NCBI GenBank assembly: GCA_018663505.1
Contig: JABJQG010000046.1
Span: forward strand, 614 to 64,613
Direction of reading: 5' to 3'
Length of the DNA: 64,000 bases
Source: Pseudobdellovibrionaceae bacterium
Lineage (GTDB): Bacteria > Bdellovibrionota > Bdellovibrionia > Bdellovibrionales > UBA1609
This document shows, piece by piece, positions 21,634-58,077 of the stretch; within the stretch, counting starts at the first letter, position 1, and every line of letters begins with the position of its first letter. The position numbers and the translations under genes were made by a program. The notes under the pieces are model-generated. The model did no database searches, was not told the origin of the DNA, and saw nothing but the letters and a program-made list of their open reading frames with translations.

Positions 21634-22827
21634 ATGAATCAAAGTTGTGTAAAATCGGAGGATTATGTGAAAATACTGATCAAACTTATTTTGATCATGC
21701 CATTTTTTGCATACGCAAATTCAGAGAATAAAAATAGCTCCCAAAAAAGTACTTTGGCAGTAAAGGACCAGTCTGCACTTTTGAATAATAAATCTAGCAC
21801 TATGTTCTCTTTGGAAAACAGCTTTATTTCCAAAGTGTCCACATTTGATGAAGGTGAAGATTCTGCATACCAGGTGATTTTTGGATACCAACCTAGTTTA
21901 AAATTTAACATCCATTCAAAGTTTAATATTGATACTCAATTCTCCATTAACCTTGGCGCTTCGCGGGTACAATCTCGTTTTCAGAGACACAGCGACAATG
22001 ATACGGTTTTGAATGAATTAAGTATGAATTACCTACCCATAGAAAATTTAAAATTTTCATTAGGTGCAATAAATCAAAAACACCTAGAGTCTCCACATTT
22101 AGTTTCAGGTGTGACGTTCCCAGGTTTTAAATTGGAAGCAAAAACTAAGGGAAAGGGATTTAATATTGGAGCAAAGACACAATATTTAGTTCCCACATCT
22201 TCAAGTTTTGACTCAGACAGAAGCGAATCTGAAGTGCTACCTAACTTTCAAACCCAGGGTATCTTTGCAAGTTATAATGGTTTTAGTAAAGTAGATCTGC
22301 AAGCTCAGTGGAACCTGTATAGTTTTTCTAACTTGCCTTCTGTGGTGGCTTATGAAAGCAAGCGATTAGGGAATTTTTATATTACAGGAACAGATGTTTC
22401 AGAGAGTGCCTTTGCTGTTGATTATGCTGGGCTAAGCCAATCCTATAATGCGAAAATTAACTACACCAAGGGGCTTTCACATAATTTATTTGCCTCAATT
22501 GTTGAGAACCAAAATTTAGAATCCGGTAGTAATCGAGCACAATCAGTAGGTACAAGTTTAGATGTGAAAATTGCTCAAGTGGTTTTGACTCCTTCCATAA
22601 CCACATTTTTCTCAGAAACAGATGCTTCGCCAGCATTTTATAACTCTAGTGATCTTGGACACAGTAACAGACAAGGGATGAAATACTCTTTGCGTACCTA
22701 TTTTAAGAAATTGAAATTTGCCATTCAAGCGAACCTTATAGATTCCCAGGTGTTAAACATCTCTGCATATCAACAAGATTTAGTTATAGCAGAACTCTTT
22801 GTGGAGATGATCAATGTACGGTTCTAA
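21634..22827 (+). CDS. predicted outer-membrane beta-barrel protein
   Basis: Signal peptide (...IMPFFAYA), alternating beta-strand-like pattern throughout, and a C-terminal aromatic residue (...MINVRF). The GTG at 21667 with GGAGG 5 nt upstream is an alternative start. Confidence 0.6.
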   Translation: MNQSCVKSEDYVKILIKLILIMPFFAYANSENKNSSQKSTLAVKDQSALLNNKSSTMFSLENSFISKVSTFDEGEDSAYQVIFGYQPSLKFNIHSKFNIDTQFSINLGASRVQSRFQRHSDNDTVLNELSMNYLPIENLKFSLGAINQKHLESPHLVSGVTFPGFKLEAKTKGKGFNIGAKTQYLVPTSSSFDSDRSESEVLPNFQTQGIFASYNGFSKVDLQAQWNLYSFSNLPSVVAYESKRLGNFYITGTDVSESAFAVDYAGLSQSYNAKINYTKGLSHNLFASIVENQNLESGSNRAQSVGTSLDVKIAQVVLTPSITTFFSETDASPAFYNSSDLGHSNRQGMKYSLRTYFKKLKFAIQANLIDSQVLNISAYQQDLVIAELFVEMINVRF

Positions 22828-25800
22828 GGTGTTGCAACATTTTATCAAAACCACGTTACTTGTTGGCTTAGTATCTACAACGTTTCTTTCCTCAGGTTGT
22901 TTACGAAAGGCTGAGAAAGCGAAGCCACAGGTAGAAATGTCGGTGGAAGAAAAAGCTAAAAGTTCAGCTGATTTTAAATTAGTGACGGTAACTGGTGAGT
23001 CTTTTGCCAGCTCCGCATCTAAACTTTGGGGGATCCCCACCCACAAAACCTATGATTTCAGAGCATGTTTAATATCTAAAGCCACTAAATCTCCCTTGTC
23101 ATCGGGTCAAAAATTTAATGTTGTAAGGCCTGACAAAGGGGTTTCCTTTGCAGAAACAGATGATCATGGGTGTTTAAATTGGCATGAGAAAATCACATTT
23201 AACTTTGCTGCAGACTCCACATACATTGAATTGCCGAGAACATTATCTGGCCGTGGTATTTACAAAGGGGATCTTCCATTAAGTATTGGTATAAATCCTT
23301 GGTTAGAATATAGAAATGAAAAAGGAACGGAGGTTGTAGACCTTGCTAAAGTTAAGTTACCAGACAGCCATGTGGTAAGAGGGAAAGACAGTAAACTTTC
23401 ACTTTCAGGCCTATATAACAATGGGTCAGGTAGAGATCTGCTTATCGACAATAAAGTACAGTTAGAAATTTCCAAAGTTGAAGACGTTAAGGGAGCAAAA
23501 AGGGTAGAGGTAATTGCTAAAATTAAACCCTATATTGAACCTTTAAACATGTTAGGCAAACAAGTACGATATGACTTCAGAAAGGGAAAATTTCATGTAG
23601 CTCTTCAACTGGTTGCTGACCAGTTAGGTGCAGGAGCCAAACGCAGTATGCTGTTAACACCCACATTGATGCCCAAACCAAATGCAGAAGTTAAGGCTGA
23701 TGGAACAATTATATTCAAACAAGAAGTGTTGTTAAATAGAGAAGTTATGCAGGGTAATATTCATATGGCCTTAAGTGTAAGGACTGTGGACGACCCCTTT
23801 GTCACACCTTTAAAACCATATGAGGGGCTGCATAGAGTTAGTGACCTTAGAAATATTTTTAACAAGGACCATAGTGCCCATCAGATTGCAGGTGTGTTTA
23901 CTGAGGAAGACTTCAGCTATGGTGAGTATATTTCGAAAACAGAAGGTTTTGACATACTTAAAAAAGAAGGCCTAGCACGTGATCTACCACCATTTGTTTA
24001 TGAGCCTATGGCCATTCGTTTTGTGCGCATAAAATCAGGTGAAACGGCAACACGTAGAATTGTCATGTACAGAGTACAAACAAGGGTTGTTGATAGCATA
24101 ACAATGTTACCTGTGAAGTTTGCAAAGTTCTCTATCTATAAAAGTGAAAGTGCAACAAGAGAGTCCTCTGATACTGATGCCTTTGGTATTTTAAAATGGA
24201 CGGATGAAATTTCTCATTTATATTATATCCCCGAACAGTACTTTTTTCCCCAAGCTGTGGCTACCCATGTTTTATCTAAGGATACTCATAAGTTTAAATT
24301 AGTTTTAAACCCATGGACAGCGGGCTGGACTTTTGGAACGGATATGGGTGAACAAGGCGCATATTACGAAGGATTAAATAAAACGGTAAAGCGTAAGTCA
24401 TTATTTATGGTGGATGCTTTCAGATATCAAACCATTCGTTTTCGCTATGTTATAGATAAAAATATGACATTGAATGTAAAAAAAGCTGTGGTTATGGCCA
24501 TGGACCCATTAACCCAACGATACACAATTGATTTTGGTCGAAAGGGTGGAGAACCCCTAAGAGATGGTATTTATCTTGTTAAGGTGGCTTTAGTGAAATT
24601 TTTCGTTGACCCCTTTGGCAATGGAACTCGACTGCAACGGATTAAAGCTACAGGGGAACATAAGGTGGTAAAGGTTTCAGATAACCCTGAATCCAAGAAA
24701 AGAAAATATGTCACTGTAATTAAAAAATTGTTAAGAGTGCAGGGTGGGCGTATAACTACTCCATTAGAATTTTCCATGCGTGACCTTAGAATGATGAGTA
24801 TTCGTACAAACATTATGATTCAAATTGAAACCATTGATGAACAAAAGTTACTTGAAATTAATATTGCTGATAAGAAAATTAGAGACTTAGAGACAGCATG
24901 GAAAGCCTATAATCCTGAACTGATTGATGAAGGCAAGGCTCTTACTGAAGAGCAAAAAGATGAGTTTATGCTTAAACATATGGATTTATATAAAGCTGAA
25001 ACTGAAAAACTTAAAATGAATATGGCCACTGAGATCACTGATTTGCAAAACCACAGAGAAGTGTTGGCCAATAACCAAGCAGCTCGTTATAAAGCCTTAC
25101 AAGCCTTTGAAGATAAGGTTGGTAATGCTGATATAAAAGAGTTGAAAAAAAGATTTGAAGATACCATGAAATTAGATAAGACTGAGTTTGAAGCTTATTC
25201 GGCAAAACTGCGTGGAAAGATGAGTGACATTGAGACAACTTTTTCAGATGAATGGCGGCAGTGGAACCGTGATATGGACGTGCCAAGTAATGAAATTAAA
25301 GACTGGTACACATGGAGTGATGATTTTAAAGAAGATGAGTTTGATGGCGTAGGTGCTTTAAAAATAAAAAAACAATCCATGTCATGGCAAGCTAAAATAA
25401 GTGAGAATGAATACTATAAATCCCTATCTTTTTCCAACGAGAATCCAGATACAAATAGAAATGGACTAGGGGAAGTAAAATCTGTTTACGACTATCTCTC
25501 AAACCTACAGCTTTTTATGGATAATAATGACATGCCAGGTGTTGTAGGGAACGCTGACTTAACAACAATGAAACTGAATAACTACACACAAAACCCAGCA
25601 GCCCCATTTATTGACCTTGACTTGTATCGTGTTAATGAGGGACTGGCTCGTAGAAGTTTTATTGGTCCATGCACCTTAATTGAAAACCAAAATTTATCGG
25701 AAATGCGTCCTACAGATACCATTGATGAAAAATATTGTGAATTCATAGATTGCCAGGAAAATTTAGATACACTTGCCGAAAAAATTGATAACAAAGAATT

Positions 25801-27667
25801 TGAAGACTCAGCATATCACGGTGCTGTAAAGCCATTTGCCCAAATCCAAGTGGATAATATTATCGATCTTTACCAAAGAGAAGAACGCTTTTATTACACA
25901 GAAATGAAAGCCGTATCCCAGGTAGGTAGTTTTCTTGATAAATACAATATGGATTATATTTCTTTGACTGATAACGCATTTGATAGTGAAGATCCCGAAG
26001 CTCATGCTGAAAAACCCAAACGCTTTAATAATGACTGCGTGGTAAAAAAAGATCTGAAGGAATATAATCGTAATACTTTAGATACCTGTTACGTAGATGC
26101 AGACGATAAAATACAACCTATTGCTGATTTTTTAAAAGAGCTTGATGCTGCTGATTCTAAAAGCCTGATTCAAGACTTTTTTCTATATAAATTTTATGGA
26201 GAAGGAGATGAGGTTGATTACCCACAAGTGAATACGCTACCAGGTTTGTTAGGACAAGTTTGGGGTGATTTTCGTGAAATGGTAGAATTTATTGATGACA
26301 AGATGTACGATAATTACATTGAGGATGTAATTAATGTAGCTAGGAATACCACTAAATTGGTGCAAGGAGCAGTCAATTCAACTTTTGATACCGACTATGG
26401 GTTGGATACTAACACTCGTCGCTATATTAATGAATTTGAAGATCAGAAATTAAAAAAGTTTGATACAGAATCATTAACTGATTATTTCAACAATGAGCAT
26501 GCGAAGCTAAGCCTATTACAAGCTACTAAACTATGTGGTTTACTCACGCAAAGGATTGCTGGTCAGCTTGTAGATAAAAATATGATAAGCGATGAGTATG
26601 TAGGTGTGCCTGGAAAACCTAGAAGTGTAGAGGATCTAGTTAATTCAGCGGGATATATGATGGCTGATAATGATCCTGAAAAAAGAAAATTTATGGGATT
26701 GCCCGAAAACCGTCCAAAATTGCTGATACACAAAGCTCTTCGAAAAATTTGTTTACAGTCAATTAAGCTCGATTACAGAACAGGGAAAGTAAATGCGCCT
26801 ATGCTTTCTTTTGATCGACGCCATCGAGTCATTGAGACAGAAGGCTATGAACACAAAATTGGTCAAAATATGAATCTTAACGTTGGCTACGGTTTTGAAA
26901 TGAATTTTGCTGAATTAAATATGAGTAGTACAACCATTGGCCTTAATGGAGCTAGTATTCCTGCAGCCATGATGGTAGCAGCTTCAAAAAAGGGTGCAGA
27001 TTTATTAAAATTAAGAAAAGCTAAGAAAACGGGTACTGACTTAAAAAATATTAAAAGTTCAAGTTTAGGAGTTATGATAGAGGCGGGGCTATTGTCAGGA
27101 CTCATCATTGCTTCTAAAACACTTGATCGTACTGAAGTTAATGAAATAGCTAAAGGATCTTCAGTAAGTGAAGGGGTGTTTCTAGTGGTGCAACAAGCCA
27201 CTATGGAGATTACACTAAAGAAGTATGAGAGATGTTTCACGTCACACCTCTCACCAGCATTGTTTTATGGTAAGTCTCCTGAAGATTTATATTTACGGGA
27301 AGGACTTAATTTTTCTGATAAAAAACTAGCTGAAGTTATTACAAAAGGTATCATGGTCTGTGAAGGTAAAGTGATTGCTGATCAGCCAAAAAAGGTTATT
27401 GAGAATTACTATTATATCACCCAACATTTTACAGCAGGTGATTTATTGGATGACGGTAATTTATTAAATCATGTATGGCTATTACCTATAAGAGGGACTA
27501 AGGATTTTAATAAATTCATGCGAGCCATTAATGCAAAGGAAATCGACCAAGATGGTGAAGTGATTAAGCCAGGTGACGAATTTTCTTACCCATTAAAGAG
27601 CTTAAGAAAAAACTATGATCAAGTAATTCCATCTTTTCCAGGTATGTACACAGAACAAAGCTTATAG
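22814..27667 (+). CDS. giant (1617 aa) hypothetical lipoprotein with a central coiled coil
   Basis: The start overlaps the barrel gene by 14 nt. Lipobox FLSSGC and a long K/E-rich coiled-coil segment near aa 690-830. No family recognised. Confidence 0.8.
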   Translation: MYGSKVLQHFIKTTLLVGLVSTTFLSSGCLRKAEKAKPQVEMSVEEKAKSSADFKLVTVTGESFASSASKLWGIPTHKTYDFRACLISKATKSPLSSGQKFNVVRPDKGVSFAETDDHGCLNWHEKITFNFAADSTYIELPRTLSGRGIYKGDLPLSIGINPWLEYRNEKGTEVVDLAKVKLPDSHVVRGKDSKLSLSGLYNNGSGRDLLIDNKVQLEISKVEDVKGAKRVEVIAKIKPYIEPLNMLGKQVRYDFRKGKFHVALQLVADQLGAGAKRSMLLTPTLMPKPNAEVKADGTIIFKQEVLLNREVMQGNIHMALSVRTVDDPFVTPLKPYEGLHRVSDLRNIFNKDHSAHQIAGVFTEEDFSYGEYISKTEGFDILKKEGLARDLPPFVYEPMAIRFVRIKSGETATRRIVMYRVQTRVVDSITMLPVKFAKFSIYKSESATRESSDTDAFGILKWTDEISHLYYIPEQYFFPQAVATHVLSKDTHKFKLVLNPWTAGWTFGTDMGEQGAYYEGLNKTVKRKSLFMVDAFRYQTIRFRYVIDKNMTLNVKKAVVMAMDPLTQRYTIDFGRKGGEPLRDGIYLVKVALVKFFVDPFGNGTRLQRIKATGEHKVVKVSDNPESKKRKYVTVIKKLLRVQGGRITTPLEFSMRDLRMMSIRTNIMIQIETIDEQKLLEINIADKKIRDLETAWKAYNPELIDEGKALTEEQKDEFMLKHMDLYKAETEKLKMNMATEITDLQNHREVLANNQAARYKALQAFEDKVGNADIKELKKRFEDTMKLDKTEFEAYSAKLRGKMSDIETTFSDEWRQWNRDMDVPSNEIKDWYTWSDDFKEDEFDGVGALKIKKQSMSWQAKISENEYYKSLSFSNENPDTNRNGLGEVKSVYDYLSNLQLFMDNNDMPGVVGNADLTTMKLNNYTQNPAAPFIDLDLYRVNEGLARRSFIGPCTLIENQNLSEMRPTDTIDEKYCEFIDCQENLDTLAEKIDNKEFEDSAYHGAVKPFAQIQVDNIIDLYQREERFYYTEMKAVSQVGSFLDKYNMDYISLTDNAFDSEDPEAHAEKPKRFNNDCVVKKDLKEYNRNTLDTCYVDADDKIQPIADFLKELDAADSKSLIQDFFLYKFYGEGDEVDYPQVNTLPGLLGQVWGDFREMVEFIDDKMYDNYIEDVINVARNTTKLVQGAVNSTFDTDYGLDTNTRRYINEFEDQKLKKFDTESLTDYFNNEHAKLSLLQATKLCGLLTQRIAGQLVDKNMISDEYVGVPGKPRSVEDLVNSAGYMMADNDPEKRKFMGLPENRPKLLIHKALRKICLQSIKLDYRTGKVNAPMLSFDRRHRVIETEGYEHKIGQNMNLNVGYGFEMNFAELNMSSTTIGLNGASIPAAMMVAASKKGADLLKLRKAKKTGTDLKNIKSSSLGVMIEAGLLSGLIIASKTLDRTEVNEIAKGSSVSEGVFLVVQQATMEITLKKYERCFTSHLSPALFYGKSPEDLYLREGLNFSDKKLAEVITKGIMVCEGKVIADQPKKVIENYYYITQHFTAGDLLDDGNLLNHVWLLPIRGTKDFNKFMRAINAKEIDQDGEVIKPGDEFSYPLKSLRKNYDQVIPSFPGMYTEQSL

Positions 27668-27760
27668 CGCTATAAAATCAACAATTCTAGAGCTTTTCAT
27701 TTAACTTTGCGGTGGGACATGCTAAGTGTTGCTTTCGTACAAAGTCATTTTCAATCTTTC

Positions 27761-29128
27761 ATGGAGACCGCAAAAATGTTATCTCAAATTCTTTCCATTG
27801 TAGTGGATTACGCATGGGGAATGCCTCTTTTAATTTTACTTGTTGGTGGTGGAATCACTTTGGTTTTTTATTCTCGTTTTATACCTTTAGTGGGTTTTGT
27901 TCACGCAATAAAGCTTGTAACAGGTAAGTTCCATCATAAGGATGAGGAAAAGGCAGAGGGGCAGCTGTCTCACTTTAAAGCTCTGATGAATGCTTTGTCC
28001 TCAACAATTGGTTTAGGAAACATCGCTGGTGTTGCGGTTGCCATAACTCAGGGGGGTCCAGGTGCAATTTTTTGGATGTGGGTTTCAGCGCTTATTGGTA
28101 TGAACACTAAGTTTTTTGAAAGTACTTTGGCGGTGATGTACCGTGGTCATGACTATAGAGGTGAAGTCCAGGGTGGACCAATGTATGTGATCGAAAAAGC
28201 CCTGCCGAAGCAATTTCATTTTTTAGCTATATTTTTTGCAGTGTGTGGTCTGATTGGCACCATGTCTTTGTTTCAGGTGAATCAGCTGGCTTCAATGAGT
28301 GAAACTTATTTTTCAGTGCCACCCATCTTTGTAGGTATAGTTTCTTCAGTTTTTGTAGCTTATGTAGCTATGGGGGGAGTACGTAGAATTGCTGAAATTA
28401 CCTCGCGATTAGTGCCTTTAATGTGTGTGCTCTATATTATCTCTGCAATTTCCATATTGGTGTTGAAGTCAGATCTTATTCCAAGAGTTTTTCTTTCAAT
28501 ATTTACAGAAGCACTTTCACCATCGGCTGTAGGTGGCGGAGTTTTCGCCGGAATTTTAATTGTGATGAAGGTAGGGATAAAGAGAGCCTCTTTTTCTAAT
28601 GAGGCTGGCATCGGTACAGCGTCTATGGCTCATAGTAATGCTAAGACCTCTGAGCCCATCAGTGAAGGACTTGTGGCCATGTTAGGCCCCTTTATTGACA
28701 CTATAGTTGTATGTACAATGACGGCCTTAGTGATTTTAGTGACCTTGGACCCCTCAAGTTACGGAACAGACTCTGGAGTGGTATTGACCACTAGAGCGTT
28801 TGAGTCTGTATTTGGAGTTTTAGGGCGGTATTTTTTAGGGATTTCGGTGGTCTTGTTTTCTTTAACTACAATGGTGGGTATGTCCAACTATAATGAGAAG
28901 TGTTGGAATTATTTATTTAAAGGGCGTTCGTTTTTTAAAGAAAATAGCTTTATTGCTTTCTATGCCATTACTATTTTATTTGGGGCCGTTAGCGCATCGG
29001 ATGATGTGGTTAATCTGCTAGATATTGGTTTTGCTTTTATGGCTATTCCAAATATGATGGCAACCATATACTTAGCTCCTAAGGTTAAAGTTGAGCTTTT
29101 GAAATATAAAGCTAAGTATTTGTCCTAA
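27761..29128 (+). CDS. alanine/glycine:cation symporter (AGCS family)
   Basis: GQLSHFKALMNALSSTIGLGNIAGVAVAITQGGPGAIFWMWVSALIGM, with a multi-TM body. The ORF is open from 27707, and ATG 27761 or 27776 are the likely starts. Confidence 0.85.
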   Translation: METAKMLSQILSIVVDYAWGMPLLILLVGGGITLVFYSRFIPLVGFVHAIKLVTGKFHHKDEEKAEGQLSHFKALMNALSSTIGLGNIAGVAVAITQGGPGAIFWMWVSALIGMNTKFFESTLAVMYRGHDYRGEVQGGPMYVIEKALPKQFHFLAIFFAVCGLIGTMSLFQVNQLASMSETYFSVPPIFVGIVSSVFVAYVAMGGVRRIAEITSRLVPLMCVLYIISAISILVLKSDLIPRVFLSIFTEALSPSAVGGGVFAGILIVMKVGIKRASFSNEAGIGTASMAHSNAKTSEPISEGLVAMLGPFIDTIVVCTMTALVILVTLDPSSYGTDSGVVLTTRAFESVFGVLGRYFLGISVVLFSLTTMVGMSNYNEKCWNYLFKGRSFFKENSFIAFYAITILFGAVSASDDVVNLLDIGFAFMAIPNMMATIYLAPKVKVELLKYKAKYLS

Positions 29129-29175: not shown

Positions 29176-29318
29176 GTTTTTCATAAGAGGCTTCTGTGGC
29201 AGGCAAAACCTCTACCCCAAAAAGGCTCAGACATGCAGTGCTCGGCCTTCAGCCTCCGCGCTGAACTCGCTTTTTGTGCCAGAGGTTTTGCCTGCCACAG
29301 AAGCCTCTTATGAAAAAC
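29176..29318. repeat. palindromic element copy 1: 38-bp perfect arms around a 67-nt GC-rich core
   Basis: 29176-29213 is the exact reverse complement of 29281-29318. The reverse complement of core 29214-29280 aligns with core 57964-58024. Confidence 0.85.
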
Positions 29319-29343: not shown

Positions 29344-30042
29344 ATGAATATTTTAGTGGTTAGTCCTTTGAAGAAGGAGCTTAAAATTGTTATGCAGACT
29401 CTTGGTTTGTTTGATGAATTGATATATAGGTGTCTTTCTAATGGTTGCCCTGTGTGGGAACATCCTGGTAAGAAAATTGTTTTTACTTATCTTGGGGTGG
29501 GACAAAGTGAATTTCAGAAAAATTTCAAAAACATGTTAGGTACATTGGAATCTTTGGAGCAAGTTATTTGTGTTGGGAGCTGTGGAGCCTTAAATAATGA
29601 GACTCAGCTGGCTGAGGTTTTTACTTTTGGTCATAAAGCTATCTCTGAAACTAATTATGTAAGTGTTGAAGAACAAAAGGATACCGTCACCTCCGACTCT
29701 TCGCCCACCTCTAAATCTCTTTTTAGTCTTAATTCAAATGAACCTGGGCCTGAAAAATCGGCAGCGGGAAGTGTTAAGCTTGCCAAGAGCTATGTCCGGT
29801 CAGATGTGGGGCCTATAGAAGAGAGTGAAAGGATTGCTCTTTTGGCTGAAGGTTATGTGTGTGTCACTCAAGAGGGATTTCTAGGGGAGGGATACGCAGG
29901 AGGGGTGGCTTTGCTTGAGATTCGTGGTGTAACTGATTACTCTGACTCTGCTTTCCAGGCTGACTTTCATCTTAATTTGGAGCAGGCCTTGATGAGCTGC
30001 GCCAAGGTGCTTGGCCAAATATTAAAAATACATATAGACTAA
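29344..30042 (+). CDS. nucleoside phosphorylase superfamily protein (MTA/SAH nucleosidase or futalosine hydrolase-like) with a low-complexity insertion
   Basis: MNILVVSPLKKELKIV..., VICVGSCGALN and LLEIRGVTDYSD resemble PNP_UDP_1 motifs. There is a Ser/Thr/Pro-rich insert at about aa 110-150. The alternative ATG at 29320 abuts the hairpin arm. Confidence 0.5.
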   Translation: MNILVVSPLKKELKIVMQTLGLFDELIYRCLSNGCPVWEHPGKKIVFTYLGVGQSEFQKNFKNMLGTLESLEQVICVGSCGALNNETQLAEVFTFGHKAISETNYVSVEEQKDTVTSDSSPTSKSLFSLNSNEPGPEKSAAGSVKLAKSYVRSDVGPIEESERIALLAEGYVCVTQEGFLGEGYAGGVALLEIRGVTDYSDSAFQADFHLNLEQALMSCAKVLGQILKIHID

Positions 30043-39050: not shown

Positions 39051-39126
39051 TGGAGCGGGTGATGGGACTCAAACCCACGGCCTTCGCCTTGGCAAGGCGA
39101 CGCTCTATCAACTGAGCTACACCCGC
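39051..39126 (-). tRNA. tRNA-Gly(GCC): tRNA-Gly (anticodon GCC), CCA encoded
   Basis: Minus strand reads GCGGGTG-TA-GCTC-AGTTGATA-GAGC-G-TCGCC-TTGCCAA-GGCGA-AGGCC-GTGGG-TTTGAGT-CCCAT-CACCCGC-TCCA, which folds as a full cloverleaf. Confidence 0.95.
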
Positions 39127-53499: not shown

Positions 53500-55791
53500 T
53501 CACTGTTGAATTCTTAAATCTGATGAGGAATCACCGGAAACAGATTTAATATTTTGAAAATGTTCGAGTACTCTTTTTTGAGCATCAGAAATATTGCCAA
53601 AAATAATTTCATCTCTGTTGGGGTGTGCTCTGTCAGAAGCTGTAGCAAGAAAATAAAAGTAGTCTTCCGCATTCAAGTTATATTTTTGAATCAGCTGATC
53701 AGCCATATAAACTAAATAGCCGCTGAGGTGTTTATGAATCCCCCCCCTTTTGAGTAGCTGAGTAAATTCCTCCAAAGATTGATCATTTTTAAAAGTCAAA
53801 GGACTGGAATCGTTATTACCTACAGCTTTATTAAACTTCACTTTAGAGAGTACACTAGCGAGCTCATTGATAAATTTTGCTCTAGGGTTTGTTATACTAT
53901 ACTGTTCAGAAACAATATCACTTTCAGAATTAGAAGAAGTATAATTGTACTGATAAATATGGTTCTTATCAAAATAGTCTTGCAGAAGTTGAGAAAGTTC
54001 TTTGGTCGAAAACTGAGACACAGATCTGATGGCTCGTGGAAACAGGTAAAGCCCATATGATAATGAAAAACTACGTTTAGGTTTCAAATTATCTAAATCA
54101 CTCATGTCGGGAAGTTTTTGCATAAGTTTATTGTAAACATCAATAGGCAGCTCTCTTTGTAAATTAAGAACCAACTTCTTTTGTTCTTTCACATCATAAT
54201 CAGTTTCTTTAACTCGTCTGTTTCGACTTGTGTATAATAGAGACTTATCTTCTTTATCCTCTGAGAGTTCAAAAATAGTGTACCTTGTCATTGTGTTCTC
54301 AAAAGAATAGGTATGACCCCACCAAGCCCTACCGTGCCCACCTGACCGGTTAGATAGATAACTGTAGTTACTAGGTATATTGTATTTATCAATTACAGAG
54401 AATCGGCTTTCATCACTGTACTTCTTTGATTTATAATTTAAGAAGATTAAAAAATTTAGTTCAAAATTGCCGGAATAATCGCTGTGGGTTAGGCTTGAGC
54501 CATAAAAATTTCTTTCAATTTTTGGGTCTAAATCCAATCGGGCTAGTCCTCCATTGTTATCAAACTCTGTAGCATAGGAATTGTTAACAGCTTTAGCTAC
54601 ATTTATATTGTCTTGGTAAGCTTTTTCTAAATGGTATACATAAGGTTTAAGATCTTTAGAAAACTTCTCTAATTGTTCGGAATTAGTAGGACGTATTTGC
54701 TTAGTCATATTCACTAAAGAAAGGTACATTAAATCCATTATAGAATCTTGAGATTGCTCCATAAACTTTTTAAATGTGGATCTCATATCCAAGTTTTCTT
54801 CACGCAAATCTAACATATAGTCTGCCAGAAGAAAATCCTGATTTCTTTTATCTAATAAGCTGAATTTTAACAGTTTTAAATAACGTCGAGCACTTTTATT
54901 CAATGCTTTACCAACAAAGGAGCTTCCAAACACAGTGACTTGATGAAGAAAAGAGGAATTGAGGTAAATTTCTTTTTGATTGCCTCTAATTACAATAGCT
55001 TTTAGTCGAATTTTGTGAGGAGCTGCTTTGAATAAATATAAACGTACGGAACCATAGTTTTTATATTGAGTACCAAGGTTAGAGATAAATTCAGTTTCAC
55101 TTCCACTTAAGTGCTCTGAATTATATCTAGCCTTGAGCTCCATTTTTAGATTGATGGCTATAAAATCCCCTACATCAAATTTCTTGAAATCATCAGCAGT
55201 GGTTGGGATTTCATTTGGGCATTTTGTGTATTTTGGTTTTAAAGCCTCTTCCCAGCCACTTAGTGAGATCATTTCAGTGTCAGGATTTGTGACATCACTC
55301 TCATTAGGTTTGTAATAATACTGTACATCTTTAAATTGTTTTTCAAAAACCACTTCAATTTTAGGTACAAAGCTCACTGAAATGTTCTTATTAATATGAA
55401 CAGCTTTGGAAAGTGTATCGTTAAGGTTATAGTCTAGTCCGGAGGACCAAACATCTCGACGTAAAAATTGGTTTTTTATATATGACTTTCTTACCGTCAT
55501 ATCGAAGCTAAAGCCAGAGAAACTAAGGTCACTTGAAATGGTATTCAAGGGAGTATCAAGTACGTTGGATACTCCGTAGCCTAGTTTTGTACGTTCTAGT
55601 TCTTCCCTAAGCCAGGATTTACTTTTTCCAGCATATTTAACATTTTTAGCTTTTTCTGCTGCCAAAGTAAATTTATTGTCTGGTACATTAGGCTTACAGA
55701 TATCAGTAAGTCCCTCAAAAAAGCTTTCCAGGGATAAGGCAGAGGCGCTAGTTGCACTTATTAGAAGTAGTATTATCAAAATATTTTTCAT
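53500..55791 (-). CDS. large hypothetical secreted protein
   Basis: 763-aa ORF with signal peptide MKNILIILLLISATSASA. No family recognised. Confidence 0.7.
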   Translation of the reverse strand: MKNILIILLLISATSASALSLESFFEGLTDICKPNVPDNKFTLAAEKAKNVKYAGKSKSWLREELERTKLGYGVSNVLDTPLNTISSDLSFSGFSFDMTVRKSYIKNQFLRRDVWSSGLDYNLNDTLSKAVHINKNISVSFVPKIEVVFEKQFKDVQYYYKPNESDVTNPDTEMISLSGWEEALKPKYTKCPNEIPTTADDFKKFDVGDFIAINLKMELKARYNSEHLSGSETEFISNLGTQYKNYGSVRLYLFKAAPHKIRLKAIVIRGNQKEIYLNSSFLHQVTVFGSSFVGKALNKSARRYLKLLKFSLLDKRNQDFLLADYMLDLREENLDMRSTFKKFMEQSQDSIMDLMYLSLVNMTKQIRPTNSEQLEKFSKDLKPYVYHLEKAYQDNINVAKAVNNSYATEFDNNGGLARLDLDPKIERNFYGSSLTHSDYSGNFELNFLIFLNYKSKKYSDESRFSVIDKYNIPSNYSYLSNRSGGHGRAWWGHTYSFENTMTRYTIFELSEDKEDKSLLYTSRNRRVKETDYDVKEQKKLVLNLQRELPIDVYNKLMQKLPDMSDLDNLKPKRSFSLSYGLYLFPRAIRSVSQFSTKELSQLLQDYFDKNHIYQYNYTSSNSESDIVSEQYSITNPRAKFINELASVLSKVKFNKAVGNNDSSPLTFKNDQSLEEFTQLLKRGGIHKHLSGYLVYMADQLIQKYNLNAEDYFYFLATASDRAHPNRDEIIFGNISDAQKRVLEHFQNIKSVSGDSSSDLRIQQ

Positions 55792-55940
55792 TGGATGATA
55801 GTACCATGAAAGGGGTCATTCTTGTGTTATTACAGGATAATTGTAAATTGTACAGTGAGCGTAAAGAATTTTTTCAGAGTTAAATATGAGGATTAACTAG
55901 AGGAGAAGATCCATAAGTTTTGAGAATTAAAACTGGGGTA

Positions 55941-56198
55941 TTAGGATTCGCCGCCATCATCGCCAATGGCCTCCACAGGACAACCATCTAGCGCTTCTTT
56001 GCATTGTTCGATTTCATCCTCGGTGAGGGGTTGCTTGCTCACGTAAGCATGACCATCATCTTCGTCCATCATAAAGTTATCTGGAGCACTCATGACACAG
56101 GCGTCGCAGGCAATGCACTCATCATCAACAAAAAACTTTCCTGGTTTATTATCTTCAAATTTTCTATCTTTATCTGCCAAAACAACCTCGTAAATCAA
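55941..56198 (-). CDS. small ferredoxin (single Fe-S cluster type)
   Basis: CIACDACVMSAP ... CPVEAI. Confidence 0.8.
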   Translation of the reverse strand: MIYEVVLADKDRKFEDNKPGKFFVDDECIACDACVMSAPDNFMMDEDDGHAYVSKQPLTEDEIEQCKEALDGCPVEAIGDDGGES

Positions 56199-56342
56199 AA
56201 TAAGTATAATTATATTAAATATTTAAATGTATAATCCTCGGTAAAGCCACAGCTCTTTAAGAAGGAAATTCTTTACATTTTCCCACAGGGCGTGTAATTC
56301 ATCAAGGTATATAACAATCAATTACAATAGGAACTCTCGCTA

Positions 56343-57911
56343 ATGGTTACTGAGGCTGGAAAACGACGAACATTTGCAATTATTTCCCATCCAGATGCGG
56401 GAAAAACAACAATCACCGAGAAGTTACTCTATCATGGTGGTGCTATTCGCGAAACAGGTGAAGTTAAAGGAAAGTCAGGCAAAAAAGCAGCCATGTCTGA
56501 TTGGATGACATTGGAAAAAGAAAGAGGAATCTCCATAACTTCTTCAGTGATGCAGTTTATGTACGGTGAGTTAAAAATCAACCTTTTGGATACACCAGGC
56601 CATAAGGATTTTGGTGAGGATACTTATAGGACCCTTATCGCCGCAGATTCTGCAGCAATGCTTATTGACGCAGCCAAAGGTGTAGAAAAACAAACACGTC
56701 AGCTTTTTGATGTGTGTCGTATGCGTAAAATACCAATTTTTACCTTTGCTAACAAAATGGATAGAGAGGGGATCGACTCCCTAGAGTTAATTGATGATGT
56801 GGAAAGCACTTTAGGCATTAAGTGCATACCAATGACATGGCCAATAGGAATGGGCGACCGATTTCGTGGTTTGTTTCATAGAATGCATAACAAATTATAC
56901 CTTTATGAAAAAGGCAAAGTAGAGCCAGAAGTAATAGCTGTGAGCTCCTGGGAGGACCCCATAATTAAAGAGTATGTCTCAGAAGAGCTTTACGAAAAGT
57001 TTTTAGAAGATATGGAACTGTTAGAAATAGCCTTGGGTCCCTTTGAAGTAGATGATTTTTTACGAGGTGATGTTTCTCCCATGTCTTTTGGATCAGCAAA
57101 AAATAATTGGGGTGTGGATTTGTTTTTAGAAATATTTGCTAAATATGCCCCAGCACCTCAACCCAGAGAATTTGATACGGGCTCTATCAGCCCAGATGAT
57201 AAAGAATTCTCTGGATTTATTTTTAAAATTCAGGCGAACATGGACAAGAAACATCGAGATCGCATTGCTTTTTTAAGAGTTTGTTCTGGTGAATTTGAAC
57301 GGGGCATGAAGGTAAAACATATGCGTTTAAACCGTGAGCTCAGGTTAGCCTATGCCAGTGAATTTATGGCCAAAGACCGTGGTACGGTGGATAATGCTTT
57401 TGCTGGAGATATTGTGGGCATTGTTGATACCGGTAATTTTCAAATTGGAGATAGTATTTCCAGTGGGAAAAAAATAAATTTCCCACCCTTTCCTAAGTTC
57501 TCTCCTGAAATGTTTGCGTCCCTATATATTAAGGACCCTTTAAAGAAAAAACGGTTACAAAAAGGGGTGAATCAGCTGGCCGAAGAAGGAGCAATTCAGG
57601 TATTTATTGATCCACTTATAGGAGAACAGGAGCCTCTAATAGGTGTTGTTGGGGAACTTCAGTTTGAAGTTTTACTTTATAGATTAAATGATGAGTATAA
57701 CTTAGATGTACGTTTGGACCGCCTACCATATAGTGTAGCTCGGTGGCCAAAAAACAAGCATGGAGAAGACGTTTCTGATGTTAAAGGAGCTGAACGTATG
57801 TTTCAGGACTCTGATGGAAACCCGGTAGTATTATTAGCCCAAGCCTGGGATATAGGTTGGTTAGAAAAAGAAAATCCTGATGTTGAGTTTATGGCTTCAC
57901 GCTGGAGGTAG
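56343..57911 (+). CDS. prfC: peptide chain release factor 3
   Basis: RRTFAIISHPDAGKTTITEKLL, DTPGHKDF and NKMDR GTPase motifs, with RF3-like length and C-terminus. Confidence 0.95.
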   Translation: MVTEAGKRRTFAIISHPDAGKTTITEKLLYHGGAIRETGEVKGKSGKKAAMSDWMTLEKERGISITSSVMQFMYGELKINLLDTPGHKDFGEDTYRTLIAADSAAMLIDAAKGVEKQTRQLFDVCRMRKIPIFTFANKMDREGIDSLELIDDVESTLGIKCIPMTWPIGMGDRFRGLFHRMHNKLYLYEKGKVEPEVIAVSSWEDPIIKEYVSEELYEKFLEDMELLEIALGPFEVDDFLRGDVSPMSFGSAKNNWGVDLFLEIFAKYAPAPQPREFDTGSISPDDKEFSGFIFKIQANMDKKHRDRIAFLRVCSGEFERGMKVKHMRLNRELRLAYASEFMAKDRGTVDNAFAGDIVGIVDTGNFQIGDSISSGKKINFPPFPKFSPEMFASLYIKDPLKKKRLQKGVNQLAEEGAIQVFIDPLIGEQEPLIGVVGELQFEVLLYRLNDEYNLDVRLDRLPYSVARWPKNKHGEDVSDVKGAERMFQDSDGNPVVLLAQAWDIGWLEKENPDVEFMASRWR

Positions 57912-58077
57912 TCTGAAGTTTATATTTAATCTTTAAGCTCTTTTTTGGCTTTTCTTAAGTATGGGCAAAAAACGAGTTCGGAGCGGAGCCGAAGGCGAGC
58001 ACCGCTTGTTTGAGTATTTTTGTGCATACTTAAGAAAAGCCAAAAAAGAGCTTAAAGATTAAATATAAACTTCAGAC
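57911..58077. repeat. palindromic element copy 2: 53-bp perfect arms around a 61-nt GC-rich core
   Basis: 57911-57963 is the exact reverse complement of 58025-58077. Core 57964-58024 aligns with the reverse complement of 29214-29280. Confidence 0.85.

Follow-up and report, generated by a model that had tools for sequence, protein, structure and literature searches.

The window analysed here is a stretch of 64,000 nucleotides (nt) from a Pseudobdellovibrionaceae bacterium (phylum Bdellovibrionota; GenBank assembly GCA_018663505.1, contig JABJQG010000046.1, positions 614 to 64,613 of the forward strand), which has a G+C content of 36% and a GC skew that is positive throughout, and which therefore lies within one replichore. 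Two of its intergenic spacers are occupied by long palindromes, the first (copy 1) behind a gene for a sodium:alanine symporter and the second (copy 2) between prfC, encoding peptide chain release factor 3, and the gene for a class I methyltransferase (Table 1). Both palindromes consist of two complementary arms, which enclose a conserved interior, here termed the head. The four adjoining genes all lie on the plus strand, and the two heads are oppositely oriented. No other long palindrome and no other copy of the head are present in the window.

A preliminary description, made from the sequence without database searches, had reported a perfect 38-nt inverted repeat at 29176-29318 and a second palindrome at 57911-58077, and both were found at the stated coordinates. 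The arms of copy 1 (29176-29213 and 29281-29318) are exact reverse complements, and their pairing runs on imperfectly to 49 nt (94%), leaving 45 nt unpaired, while those of copy 2 (57911-57963 and 58025-58077) pair without a fault along 53 nt and reach 61 nt at 97% together with the closing A-run and T-run. The reverse complement of the first head aligns with the second over its full length with a global identity of 78%, close to the three quarters estimated by eye; the local alignment score of 59 lies far above that of shuffled sequence (13.4 ± 2.1, maximum 29 in 2000 shuffles). The arms of the two copies are indeed unrelated, having in common only 7-9-mers at chance level, and they are unique in the window. 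The closure of the heads by CAAAAA/TTTTTG was likewise seen in both copies.

Table 1. Parts of the two palindromes and adjoining genes, in positions of the window
Feature	Position	Strand	Remarks
Copy 1, left arm	29176-29213		38 nt, exact reverse complement of 29281-29318
Copy 1, conserved head	29214-29280	-	67 nt, same orientation as the copy 2 head when read on this strand
Copy 1, right arm	29281-29318		ends 1 nt before ATG 29320 and 25 nt before ATG 29344
Copy 1, apical mini-hairpin	29244-29254	-	GGCT-GAA-GGCC, GAA triloop closed by a T.G pair
Copy 1, P4 halves	29236-29263	-	CAGcGC / GCaCTG, compensatory G-C to A-T relative to copy 2 and plasmids
Copy 1, hairpin TTCAGC..GCTGAA, then CTCGCTTTTT	29248-29276	+	terminator-like, strand of the upstream symporter gene
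Copy 2, left arm	57911-57963		53 nt, perfect; begins with the last base (G) of the prfC stop codon TAG
Copy 2, conserved head	57964-58024	+	61 nt: GGCAAAAAACGAGTTCGGAGCGGAGCCGAAGGCGAGCACCGCTTGTTTGAGTATTTTTGTG
Copy 2, right arm	58025-58077		53 nt, ends 80 nt before the methyltransferase start codon
Copy 2, apical mini-hairpin	57988-57996	+	GCC-GAA-GGC, includes CCGAAGG
Copy 2, P4 stem	57979-58004	+	CGGaGC / GCaCCG, encloses the apical hairpin
Copy 2, A-run and T-run	57966-57972, 58017-58022	+	extend the stem; imperfect terminal inverted repeat of the head
Sodium:alanine symporter gene	27707-29128	+	Pfam Na_Ala_symp; stop 47 nt before copy 1
prfC	56343-57911	+	peptide chain release factor 3; stop overlaps first base of copy 2
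Open reading frame downstream of copy 1	29344-30042	+	232 amino acids, no Pfam match

Occurrence of the locus in metagenome assemblies

The bacterium is an uncultured marine one of predatory type, which homologues of prfC place in Bdellovibrionota. The sequence of the window recurs in several marine metagenome assemblies, in which many contigs end exactly at the junction of arm and head, as is to be expected of de Bruijn assemblers, which break at inverted repeats longer than their k-mer. At least four independent assemblies, made from different samples, give one and the same sequence for copy 2 apart from two single-nucleotide polymorphisms in the head, so that copy 2 is no assembly artefact. 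The two variants, which were observed among about eight contigs, are A-to-T changes at 57982 (contig L001) and 58013 (contig L094), and the arms and about 400 nt of flanking sequence showed no polymorphism. Possibly the head mutates unusually often, or it is prone to sequencing errors. An inversion of the head at this locus (flip-flop) was considered and rejected, as all full and partial contigs show one orientation. Farther upstream the population has two gene orders in front of the ferredoxin-prfC pair (window positions 53500-56200 compared with L001, L004 and L005): in the window, L002 and L003 the ferredoxin gene is preceded by an open reading frame (ORF) of 763 amino acids without Pfam match, in L001, L004 and L005 by an ORF of 141 amino acids, before which L001 carries YceI, cytochrome b and FTR1.

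Further copies and architecture of the family

A metagenome scan with a pattern anchored on the A-run, in which the true copies lay in AT-rich contigs, yielded five further copies of the Bdellovibrionota type (L053, L054, L058, L061 and L055, the last truncated by the end of its contig). The arrangement proposed from the first two copies, a conserved interior between flanks that vary and yet always pair, was upheld in every case examined. Subfamily A comprises copy 2, L053, L054 and L058, with heads of about 61 nt that are 93-98% identical, a second subfamily L061 and L055 (82-88% identity), and a third copy 1 (78%). The arms differ at every locus and measure 33-63 nt (at the further loci 54, 52 with one mismatch, 63 and 33-48 nt); among the roughly 222 paired positions of subfamily A a single mismatch occurs, and the perfect segments of the arms are devoid of wobble pairs. 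In L061 the arms reach 65 nt at 88% complementarity and in L055 they are degenerate, a decay which implies that arms are not continuously homogenised. Each copy can be pictured as a long DNA hairpin, or in duplex DNA as a cruciform, of which only the tip of about 48-65 nt is conserved and dispersed.

All copies are intergenic and lie between co-directional or convergent genes, their starts being 0, 4, 11, 15, 39 or 47 nt past a stop codon, and they fill the entire spacer of two convergent pairs; in L058 one arm covers the final three or four codons, with the stop, of a gene for an SLT transglycosylase. In five of the seven copies (L061 and L055 differ there) an imperfect inverted repeat of 11 nt, TTGGGCAAAAA / TTTTTGTGCAA, forms the two ends of the head, and the arms begin exactly where this repeat closes. 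Outside the arms of the six complete copies no direct repeat longer than 1 nt, and thus no direct target-site duplication, was found, for what flanks the head is repeated in inverted and not in direct orientation. The window has no head-less palindrome of at least 24 nt, and about 40 kb of related loci hold a single long one, a GC-rich structure in L001 that is unrelated to the element in sequence. This palindrome (L001:1888-1958, also at L004:611-629, absent from the window) is a perfect inverted repeat of 23 bp around a spacer of 25 nt, and each of its arms forms a small hairpin (GGGCGGG..CCCGCCC). That the arms are captured, spacer-like foreign DNA was considered as well and rejected, since their 24-26-mers have no exact match in IMG/VR and no second copy in the window or the related loci.

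Species-representative genomes scanned with the 21-base pattern GAGTTCNNNGCGGAGN{2,3}GAAGGCN{0,1}GAG gave 36 matches, all of them chance matches in GC-rich coding sequence, and no genome with a head of the Bdellovibrionota type; a relaxed core pattern met only chance matches in GC-rich sequence among viral sequences, and concatenated six-frame translations of the head found nothing in a protein database. No Rfam family reaches its gathering score over the elements (in E-value mode only generic, sub-threshold matches to microRNA-precursor hairpins appear there), nor did a known REP or MITE family with conserved termini match. The element is a dispersed intergenic hairpin repeat, neither an ordinary terminator pair nor a usual REP or MITE, which is not in Rfam. 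The only Rfam or ARAGORN match in the window is a tRNA-Gly (GCC) on the minus strand at 39051-39126, and a predicted lipoprotein ORF of 1617 amino acids at 22814-27667 has no Pfam family on record.

A related hairpin motif in plasmids and filamentous phages

When the 62-nt head was compared with plasmids by BLAST, 25 of 26 nt (CGGAGCGGAGCCGAAGGCGAGCACCG, head nt 16-41) matched a repeated motif, the consensus of which (about 48 nt, GGAAGCCGCACGCGGAGCGCAGCCGAAGGCGAGCACCGAACGGGTGAG) occurs at 521 places in 271 plasmid records. Its hosts comprise the IncW plasmid R7K, plasmids of the PromA and IncU types, plasmids of Burkholderia, Xanthomonas, Ralstonia and Pseudomonas, and a 2.6-kb RepL/MobV plasmid. 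An annotated feature is absent under almost every listed plasmid copy, Rfam gave no match on the plasmid motif loci, and in the papers searched we found neither the core sequence strings nor a description of such repeats in PromA or IncW plasmids or of elements with conserved loop and variable stem. The preliminary description had not recognised any described repeat family; this stands as far as Rfam is concerned, but the element is no orphan, being a diverged relative of this unannotated hairpin motif.

Fourteen diverse plasmid copies of the motif, which measures about 100 nt, were aligned (alignment A2; the motif loci are L072-L077 and L082-L089 for plasmids and L096-L103 for IMG/VR contigs) and fold as one irregular hairpin. 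An outer stem, CAAGGG/CCCTTG with a variable extension, is followed by a second variable stem, by the invariant stems AGCCG/CGGGT and CGGaGC/GCaCCG, and by an apical hairpin, usually C-GNA-G, the stem of which covaries and flips (GCC-GAA-GGC, GGC-GAA-GCC, GCCC-GCA-GGGC, GGGC-GCA-GCCC, CTGGCC-GCA-GGCCAG, CCC-GTA-GGG); a second GNA mini-hairpin lies on the 3' side. Pairing was found in 90.8% of the cells, compared with 79.9% in shuffles, and the covariation score of 0.31 (0.13 in shuffles) was equalled by none of 500 shuffles. Within the stems G.T occurs 16 times and A.C four times, an excess which indicates that the strand of the motif is the one that folds. GNA mini-hairpins are known from the priming site of phage G4, from RSF1010 ssiA (CCGAAGG) and from the single-strand promoters of N4, and those with GNA triloops are reported to be far more stable in DNA than in RNA (PMC13037366).

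Of 24 plasmid copies tallied by hand from annotation tables, 16 precede a gene whose template strand carries the motif; ardC, ssb, DUF3560, DNA methyltransferases and parB are among these genes, and we read the motif strand of the plasmids as the transferred strand. Such genes are of leading-region types, which are described as being expressed from the transferred strand by way of single-strand promoters, a concept that goes together with that of ssi sites (PMC11541004). In two plasmid loci, L084:2425-2637 (Ralstonia) and L088:2393-2659 (Mycetohabitans), inverted repeats of about 70-100 nt on each side are nested around the motif; they partly share sequence (CCCCTGAGTTC..) and form a hairpin of Frpo-like size.

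The 18-mer GAGCACCGAACGGGTGAG was detected in eight IMG/VR contigs, and all eight carry the full element (50-94 bits). At least six of them encode Zot and represent filamentous phages; the G2P replication protein is found on two, and a secretin together with RstB on one. In all seven contigs examined for this the motif lies on the coding strand, downstream of Zot or the secretin, and in L096 it stands between Zot and the G2P Rep gene. The coding strand of Inoviridae is the packaged strand, and in Ff phages this intergenic region holds the packaging signal and the minus-strand origin. What the relatives have in common is a replicon with a single-stranded stage, and their most parsimonious shared function would be complementary-strand initiation or single-strand transcription.

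Two further resemblances to the plasmid motif should be noted. The 3.5-kb AT-rich contig L081 encodes a tombusvirus-like capsid (S-domain) and a Rep-like ORF, resembles a crucivirus-like single-stranded DNA virus, and has in its 3' intergenic region (L081:3220-3335) 22 nt in common with the motif (GCGCAGCCGAAGGCGAGCACCG) within a GC-rich hairpin followed by a T-run. One plasmid variant among the copies in L076 shares GAGCGCAGCGAGT and nearby words with the ori-adjacent, ColE1-type region of pBR322/pUC, which bears primosome assembly sites; the score of 31 is marginal (shuffle maximum 29) and a lead only, and the Bdellovibrionota head shows no similarity to that region.

Relationship between the heads and the plasmid motif

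A covariance model built from plasmid copies only (model R1) was run against 106 kb of Bdellovibrionota DNA. It recovered seven elements, corresponding to six loci with copy 2 counted twice (window and L001), and gave no other match up to E = 10. Six of the matches are full-length with E = 1e-5 to 1e-3, and the truncated L055 was met partially (E about 1); copy 1 scored 27.6 bits (E = 1e-3) on the minus strand only and copy 2 36.4 bits (E = 1e-5) on the plus strand only. Every match is one-stranded, and this strand specificity implies that the head sequence itself contributes to the score. A plasmid-only hidden Markov model (HMM) likewise hit nothing except heads in the same DNA, with E from 1e-3 to 0.2. 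What the heads retain of the motif are CGGAGCG.AG, the apical hairpin (in copy 1 lengthened on both sides to GGCT-GAA-GGCC), GAGCACCG and TGAG. The plasmid motif has the conserved blocks GGAAGCCGCA...GCGGAGCGCAG and GAGCACCGAACGGGTGAG and a second mini-hairpin on the 3' side; as GGAAGCCGCA, GAACGGG and this mini-hairpin are missing from them, we call the heads diverged relatives and not strict members. Taken together, the sequence comparisons make it probable that the head is truly related to the plasmid and phage motif.

The relatives also bear on the structure of the head. According to the preliminary description a small hairpin co-varies between the two copies, TTCAGC/GCTGAA in copy 1 and TTCGG/CCGAA in copy 2. 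This hairpin is present as described, but it is not the sole pairing with such support: the G-to-A change has a compensating partner in a second, competing pairing as well, where CGGaGC/GCaCCG becomes CAGcGC/GCaCTG. The nested P4 stem with its apical GCC-GAA-GGC hairpin fits the sequences as well as the hairpin first described, and it is this nested pairing, not the other, that is common to the plasmid and phage relatives, although the present data cannot separate P4 from the TTCGG/CCGAA pairing.

Comparison with known systems

Among described elements, the signals that start DNA or RNA synthesis on single strands offer the closest architectural parallel, and we compared the element with the minus-strand origin of Ff phages, Frpo/ssi of the F plasmid, ssiA and ssiB of RSF1010, and the sso of rolling-circle plasmids. 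As in ssi and Frpo signals, a long imperfect hairpin combines variable stems with conserved unpaired or apical motifs; the head of copy 2 carries the apical CCGAAGG heptamer of RSF1010 ssiA, the plasmid and phage relatives sit on the strand that becomes single-stranded, and some of the plasmid relatives are, like Frpo, hairpins of about 200-270 nt. The likeness is, however, one of architecture without an established sequence match to the published signals. Moreover, the arms of our element have no conserved -35/-10 boxes, and the chromosomal copies, unlike these signals, are dispersed, follow no strand rule and possess perfect, locus-specific arms.

With MITEs the element shares that it is small, non-coding, multi-copy and intergenic and that its head has, in five of the seven copies, a short imperfect terminal inverted repeat. 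Unlike them it carries, immediately outside the conserved part, an inverted duplication of 33-63 nt where a MITE has a direct duplication of 2-10 nt; a direct target-site duplication is lacking, a partner transposase is not known, and the long arms are unconserved. REP/BIME, ERIC and Correia elements are, similarly to ours, intergenic hairpin repeats near the 3' ends of genes with possible effects on termination or mRNA stability, but they conserve their palindromic stems, whereas here the non-palindromic interior is conserved and the stems are unique to each locus. Quasipalindrome correction and snap-back duplication are processes which make imperfect inverted repeats perfect or give rise to inverted duplications on both sides of a spacer, and which would yield perfect Watson-Crick arms around a non-palindromic centre; they are, however, known as mutational events at single loci and not as the regular source of the arms of a repeat family. 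Retron, attC and CRISPR-like interpretations were dismissed on architecture alone, an integron attC requiring conserved R''/R' end boxes and a variable centre where the element has a conserved centre and variable ends.

Possible origin and function of the element

The account that we favour, at rather less than even confidence, takes the element as a non-autonomous, single-strand-origin-like hairpin whose arms would have arisen by local inverted duplication of one flank. The ancestral task of the head was most likely to mark single-stranded DNA for complementary-strand initiation, in the manner of a single-strand origin, an ssi site or Frpo, and the copies in Bdellovibrionota would be non-autonomous repeats lodged in short 3' intergenic spacers. 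At such a site the terminal inverted repeat formed by the A-run and T-run of the head would allow the 3' end to fold back and to copy the adjoining flank, and this copying would add an inverted copy of 33-63 nt, or overwrite existing sequence with it, leaving a conserved interior inside a palindrome that is unique to each locus. Template switching, as in quasipalindrome correction, could be an alternative route to the same arms. Copying at the level of DNA is indicated, over selection for pairing, by Watson-Crick arms without wobble in their perfect segments, by the unrelatedness of arm sequences and by their sharp outer boundaries free of direct duplication. Since in L058 one arm overlaps the end of the SLT gene, the other arm is most simply the copy, and from L058 and copy 2, where an arm starts within the prfC stop codon, we tentatively suggest that, in the orientation of the head, the 5' arm is native and the 3' arm the copy. 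The lengths of the arms look bounded by the neighbouring coding sequences.

A number of findings weigh against this account. Its link to single-stranded replicons is weakened by the modest similarity of the heads to the motif (nhmmer E 4e-4 to 0.06, obtained with phage copies added to the HMM), by the failure of the HMMs to detect copy 1, by the fact that a part of the R1 score is generic pairing which any palindrome supplies, and by the absence from the heads of the second mini-hairpin, the blocks GGAAGCCGCA and GAACGGGTGAG and GAACGGG; the phage motif, for its part, could be a packaging signal instead. A strand-specific single-strand function is not evident for the chromosomal copies, the orientation of which is evenly divided (two copies precede a gene and lie on its template strand, two precede a gene and lie on its coding strand, and two are flanked by convergent genes), copies 1 and 2 having opposed heads within one replichore; as DNA, the head alone is of ordinary stability (z about -1.8). 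No trans-acting enzyme for the element was identified, and a search for empty sites by way of prfC homologues obtained none, so that insertion or duplication has not been observed: the nearest relative among 5.8 billion proteins (83% identity) comes from a 1.7-kb contig that ends 20 nt past the stop, the next one (73%) has a different downstream synteny, and around copy 1 the contigs are short and broken within the palindrome.

The most serious competitor, to which we nevertheless assign only a minor share of the probability, regards the head as a portable bidirectional intrinsic terminator and stabiliser of mRNA 3' ends that has spread as a repeat and whose hairpin is merely lengthened by the arms. 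The six complete copies agree with this in that they begin 0-47 nt past a stop codon, have co-directional or convergent neighbours and occur in either orientation; a consensus scan flags terminator-like sites in both heads on both strands, the one in copy 1 lying on the strand of the upstream gene, and the related hairpin of L081 is followed by a T-run. Yet the T-runs begin 4-12 nt past the candidate stems, and such sites are found at chance frequency in 20 kb of the window (17, with 13.2 ± 3.2 expected). Perfect Watson-Crick arms of 33-63 bp without G.U pairs are unlike the outcome of selection on RNA, and arms of this kind would, as RNA, be substrates of RNase III. The plasmid and phage relatives lack T-runs, and the strand bias of the plasmids is opposite to mRNA sense. 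This interpretation offers a possible function, yet it leaves unexplained how the arms arose; a side-role of the head as terminator or insulator is plausible alongside the single-strand-origin-like account. The earlier statement that the element is not an ordinary terminator holds for an ordinary terminator pair, but its A-run, GC hairpin and T-run leave some room for termination as such.

We consider it improbable that the element encodes a long-hairpin RNA, with a conserved head binding a protein or ligand and a stem processed by RNase III to locus-specific small RNAs. The predicted RNA hairpins are very stable (-89 to -105 kcal/mol; z = -11 to -20 against dinucleotide shuffles), and the generic microRNA-precursor hairpins are the only similarities that Rfam returned. 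Nevertheless, none of its families is reached at gathering score, a conserved promoter is missing, the arms that would carry one being unrelated between copies, the orientation relative to the neighbours is random, and neither the window nor the related loci nor IMG/VR contain a second target for the arm sequences. Furthermore, most apical loops of the relatives are GNA triloops with a closing C-G pair, a type reported to be far more stable in DNA than in RNA (PMC13037366).

Equally hard to sustain, if not slightly more so, is the opposite order of events, in which the head, as a small insertion element, would have targeted the centre of long palindromes or terminator hairpins that already existed, the arms being older than the head. 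The 11-nt imperfect terminal inverted repeat of the head would suit such an element, and some insertion sequence (IS) elements and group II introns do target REP sequences or terminator hairpins. Against it stand the lack of head-less palindromes of at least 24 nt in the window, the unrelated, GC-rich nature of the sole one in about 40 kb of related loci (L001), and native terminators that are far shorter than 33-63 bp. Finally, it is hardly credible that the palindromes are assembly or amplification chimeras with chance-similar terminators as their heads, for although contigs often break precisely at the boundary of arm and head, such breaks are expected for inverted repeats exceeding the k-mer of the assembler, copy 2 agrees among at least four independent assemblies from different samples, the same head occurs at five further loci and the alignment of the two heads far exceeds that of shuffled sequence.

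A broader version of the single-strand-origin-like account, which we think unlikely in its full extent, would make the head a self-propagating single-strand-origin module that builds a palindrome at each site by self-primed fold-back copying, and would at the same time unite the initiation signals of filamentous phages, of the transferred strands of plasmids, of rolling-circle plasmids and possibly of single-stranded DNA viruses in one ancient family. Dispersal and arm formation of this kind would be of a sort not described for bacterial repeats.

Significance

If the single-strand-origin-like account is true, a widespread and unannotated motif of plasmids (271 records) and filamentous phages would be a signal for complementary-strand initiation or a single-strand promoter, and would bear on the establishment of plasmids and phages after their single-stranded entry into the cell. 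Palindromes of this type fragment the metagenome-assembled genomes of the lineage, as short-read assemblies break at the boundary of arm and head. In the chromosomes of Bdellovibrionota the element constitutes a repeat family that is built in the opposite way to MITE and REP elements, and to explain its perfect arms of 33-63 bp either a new mechanism of insertion or a systematic formation of palindromes by template switching would be needed.

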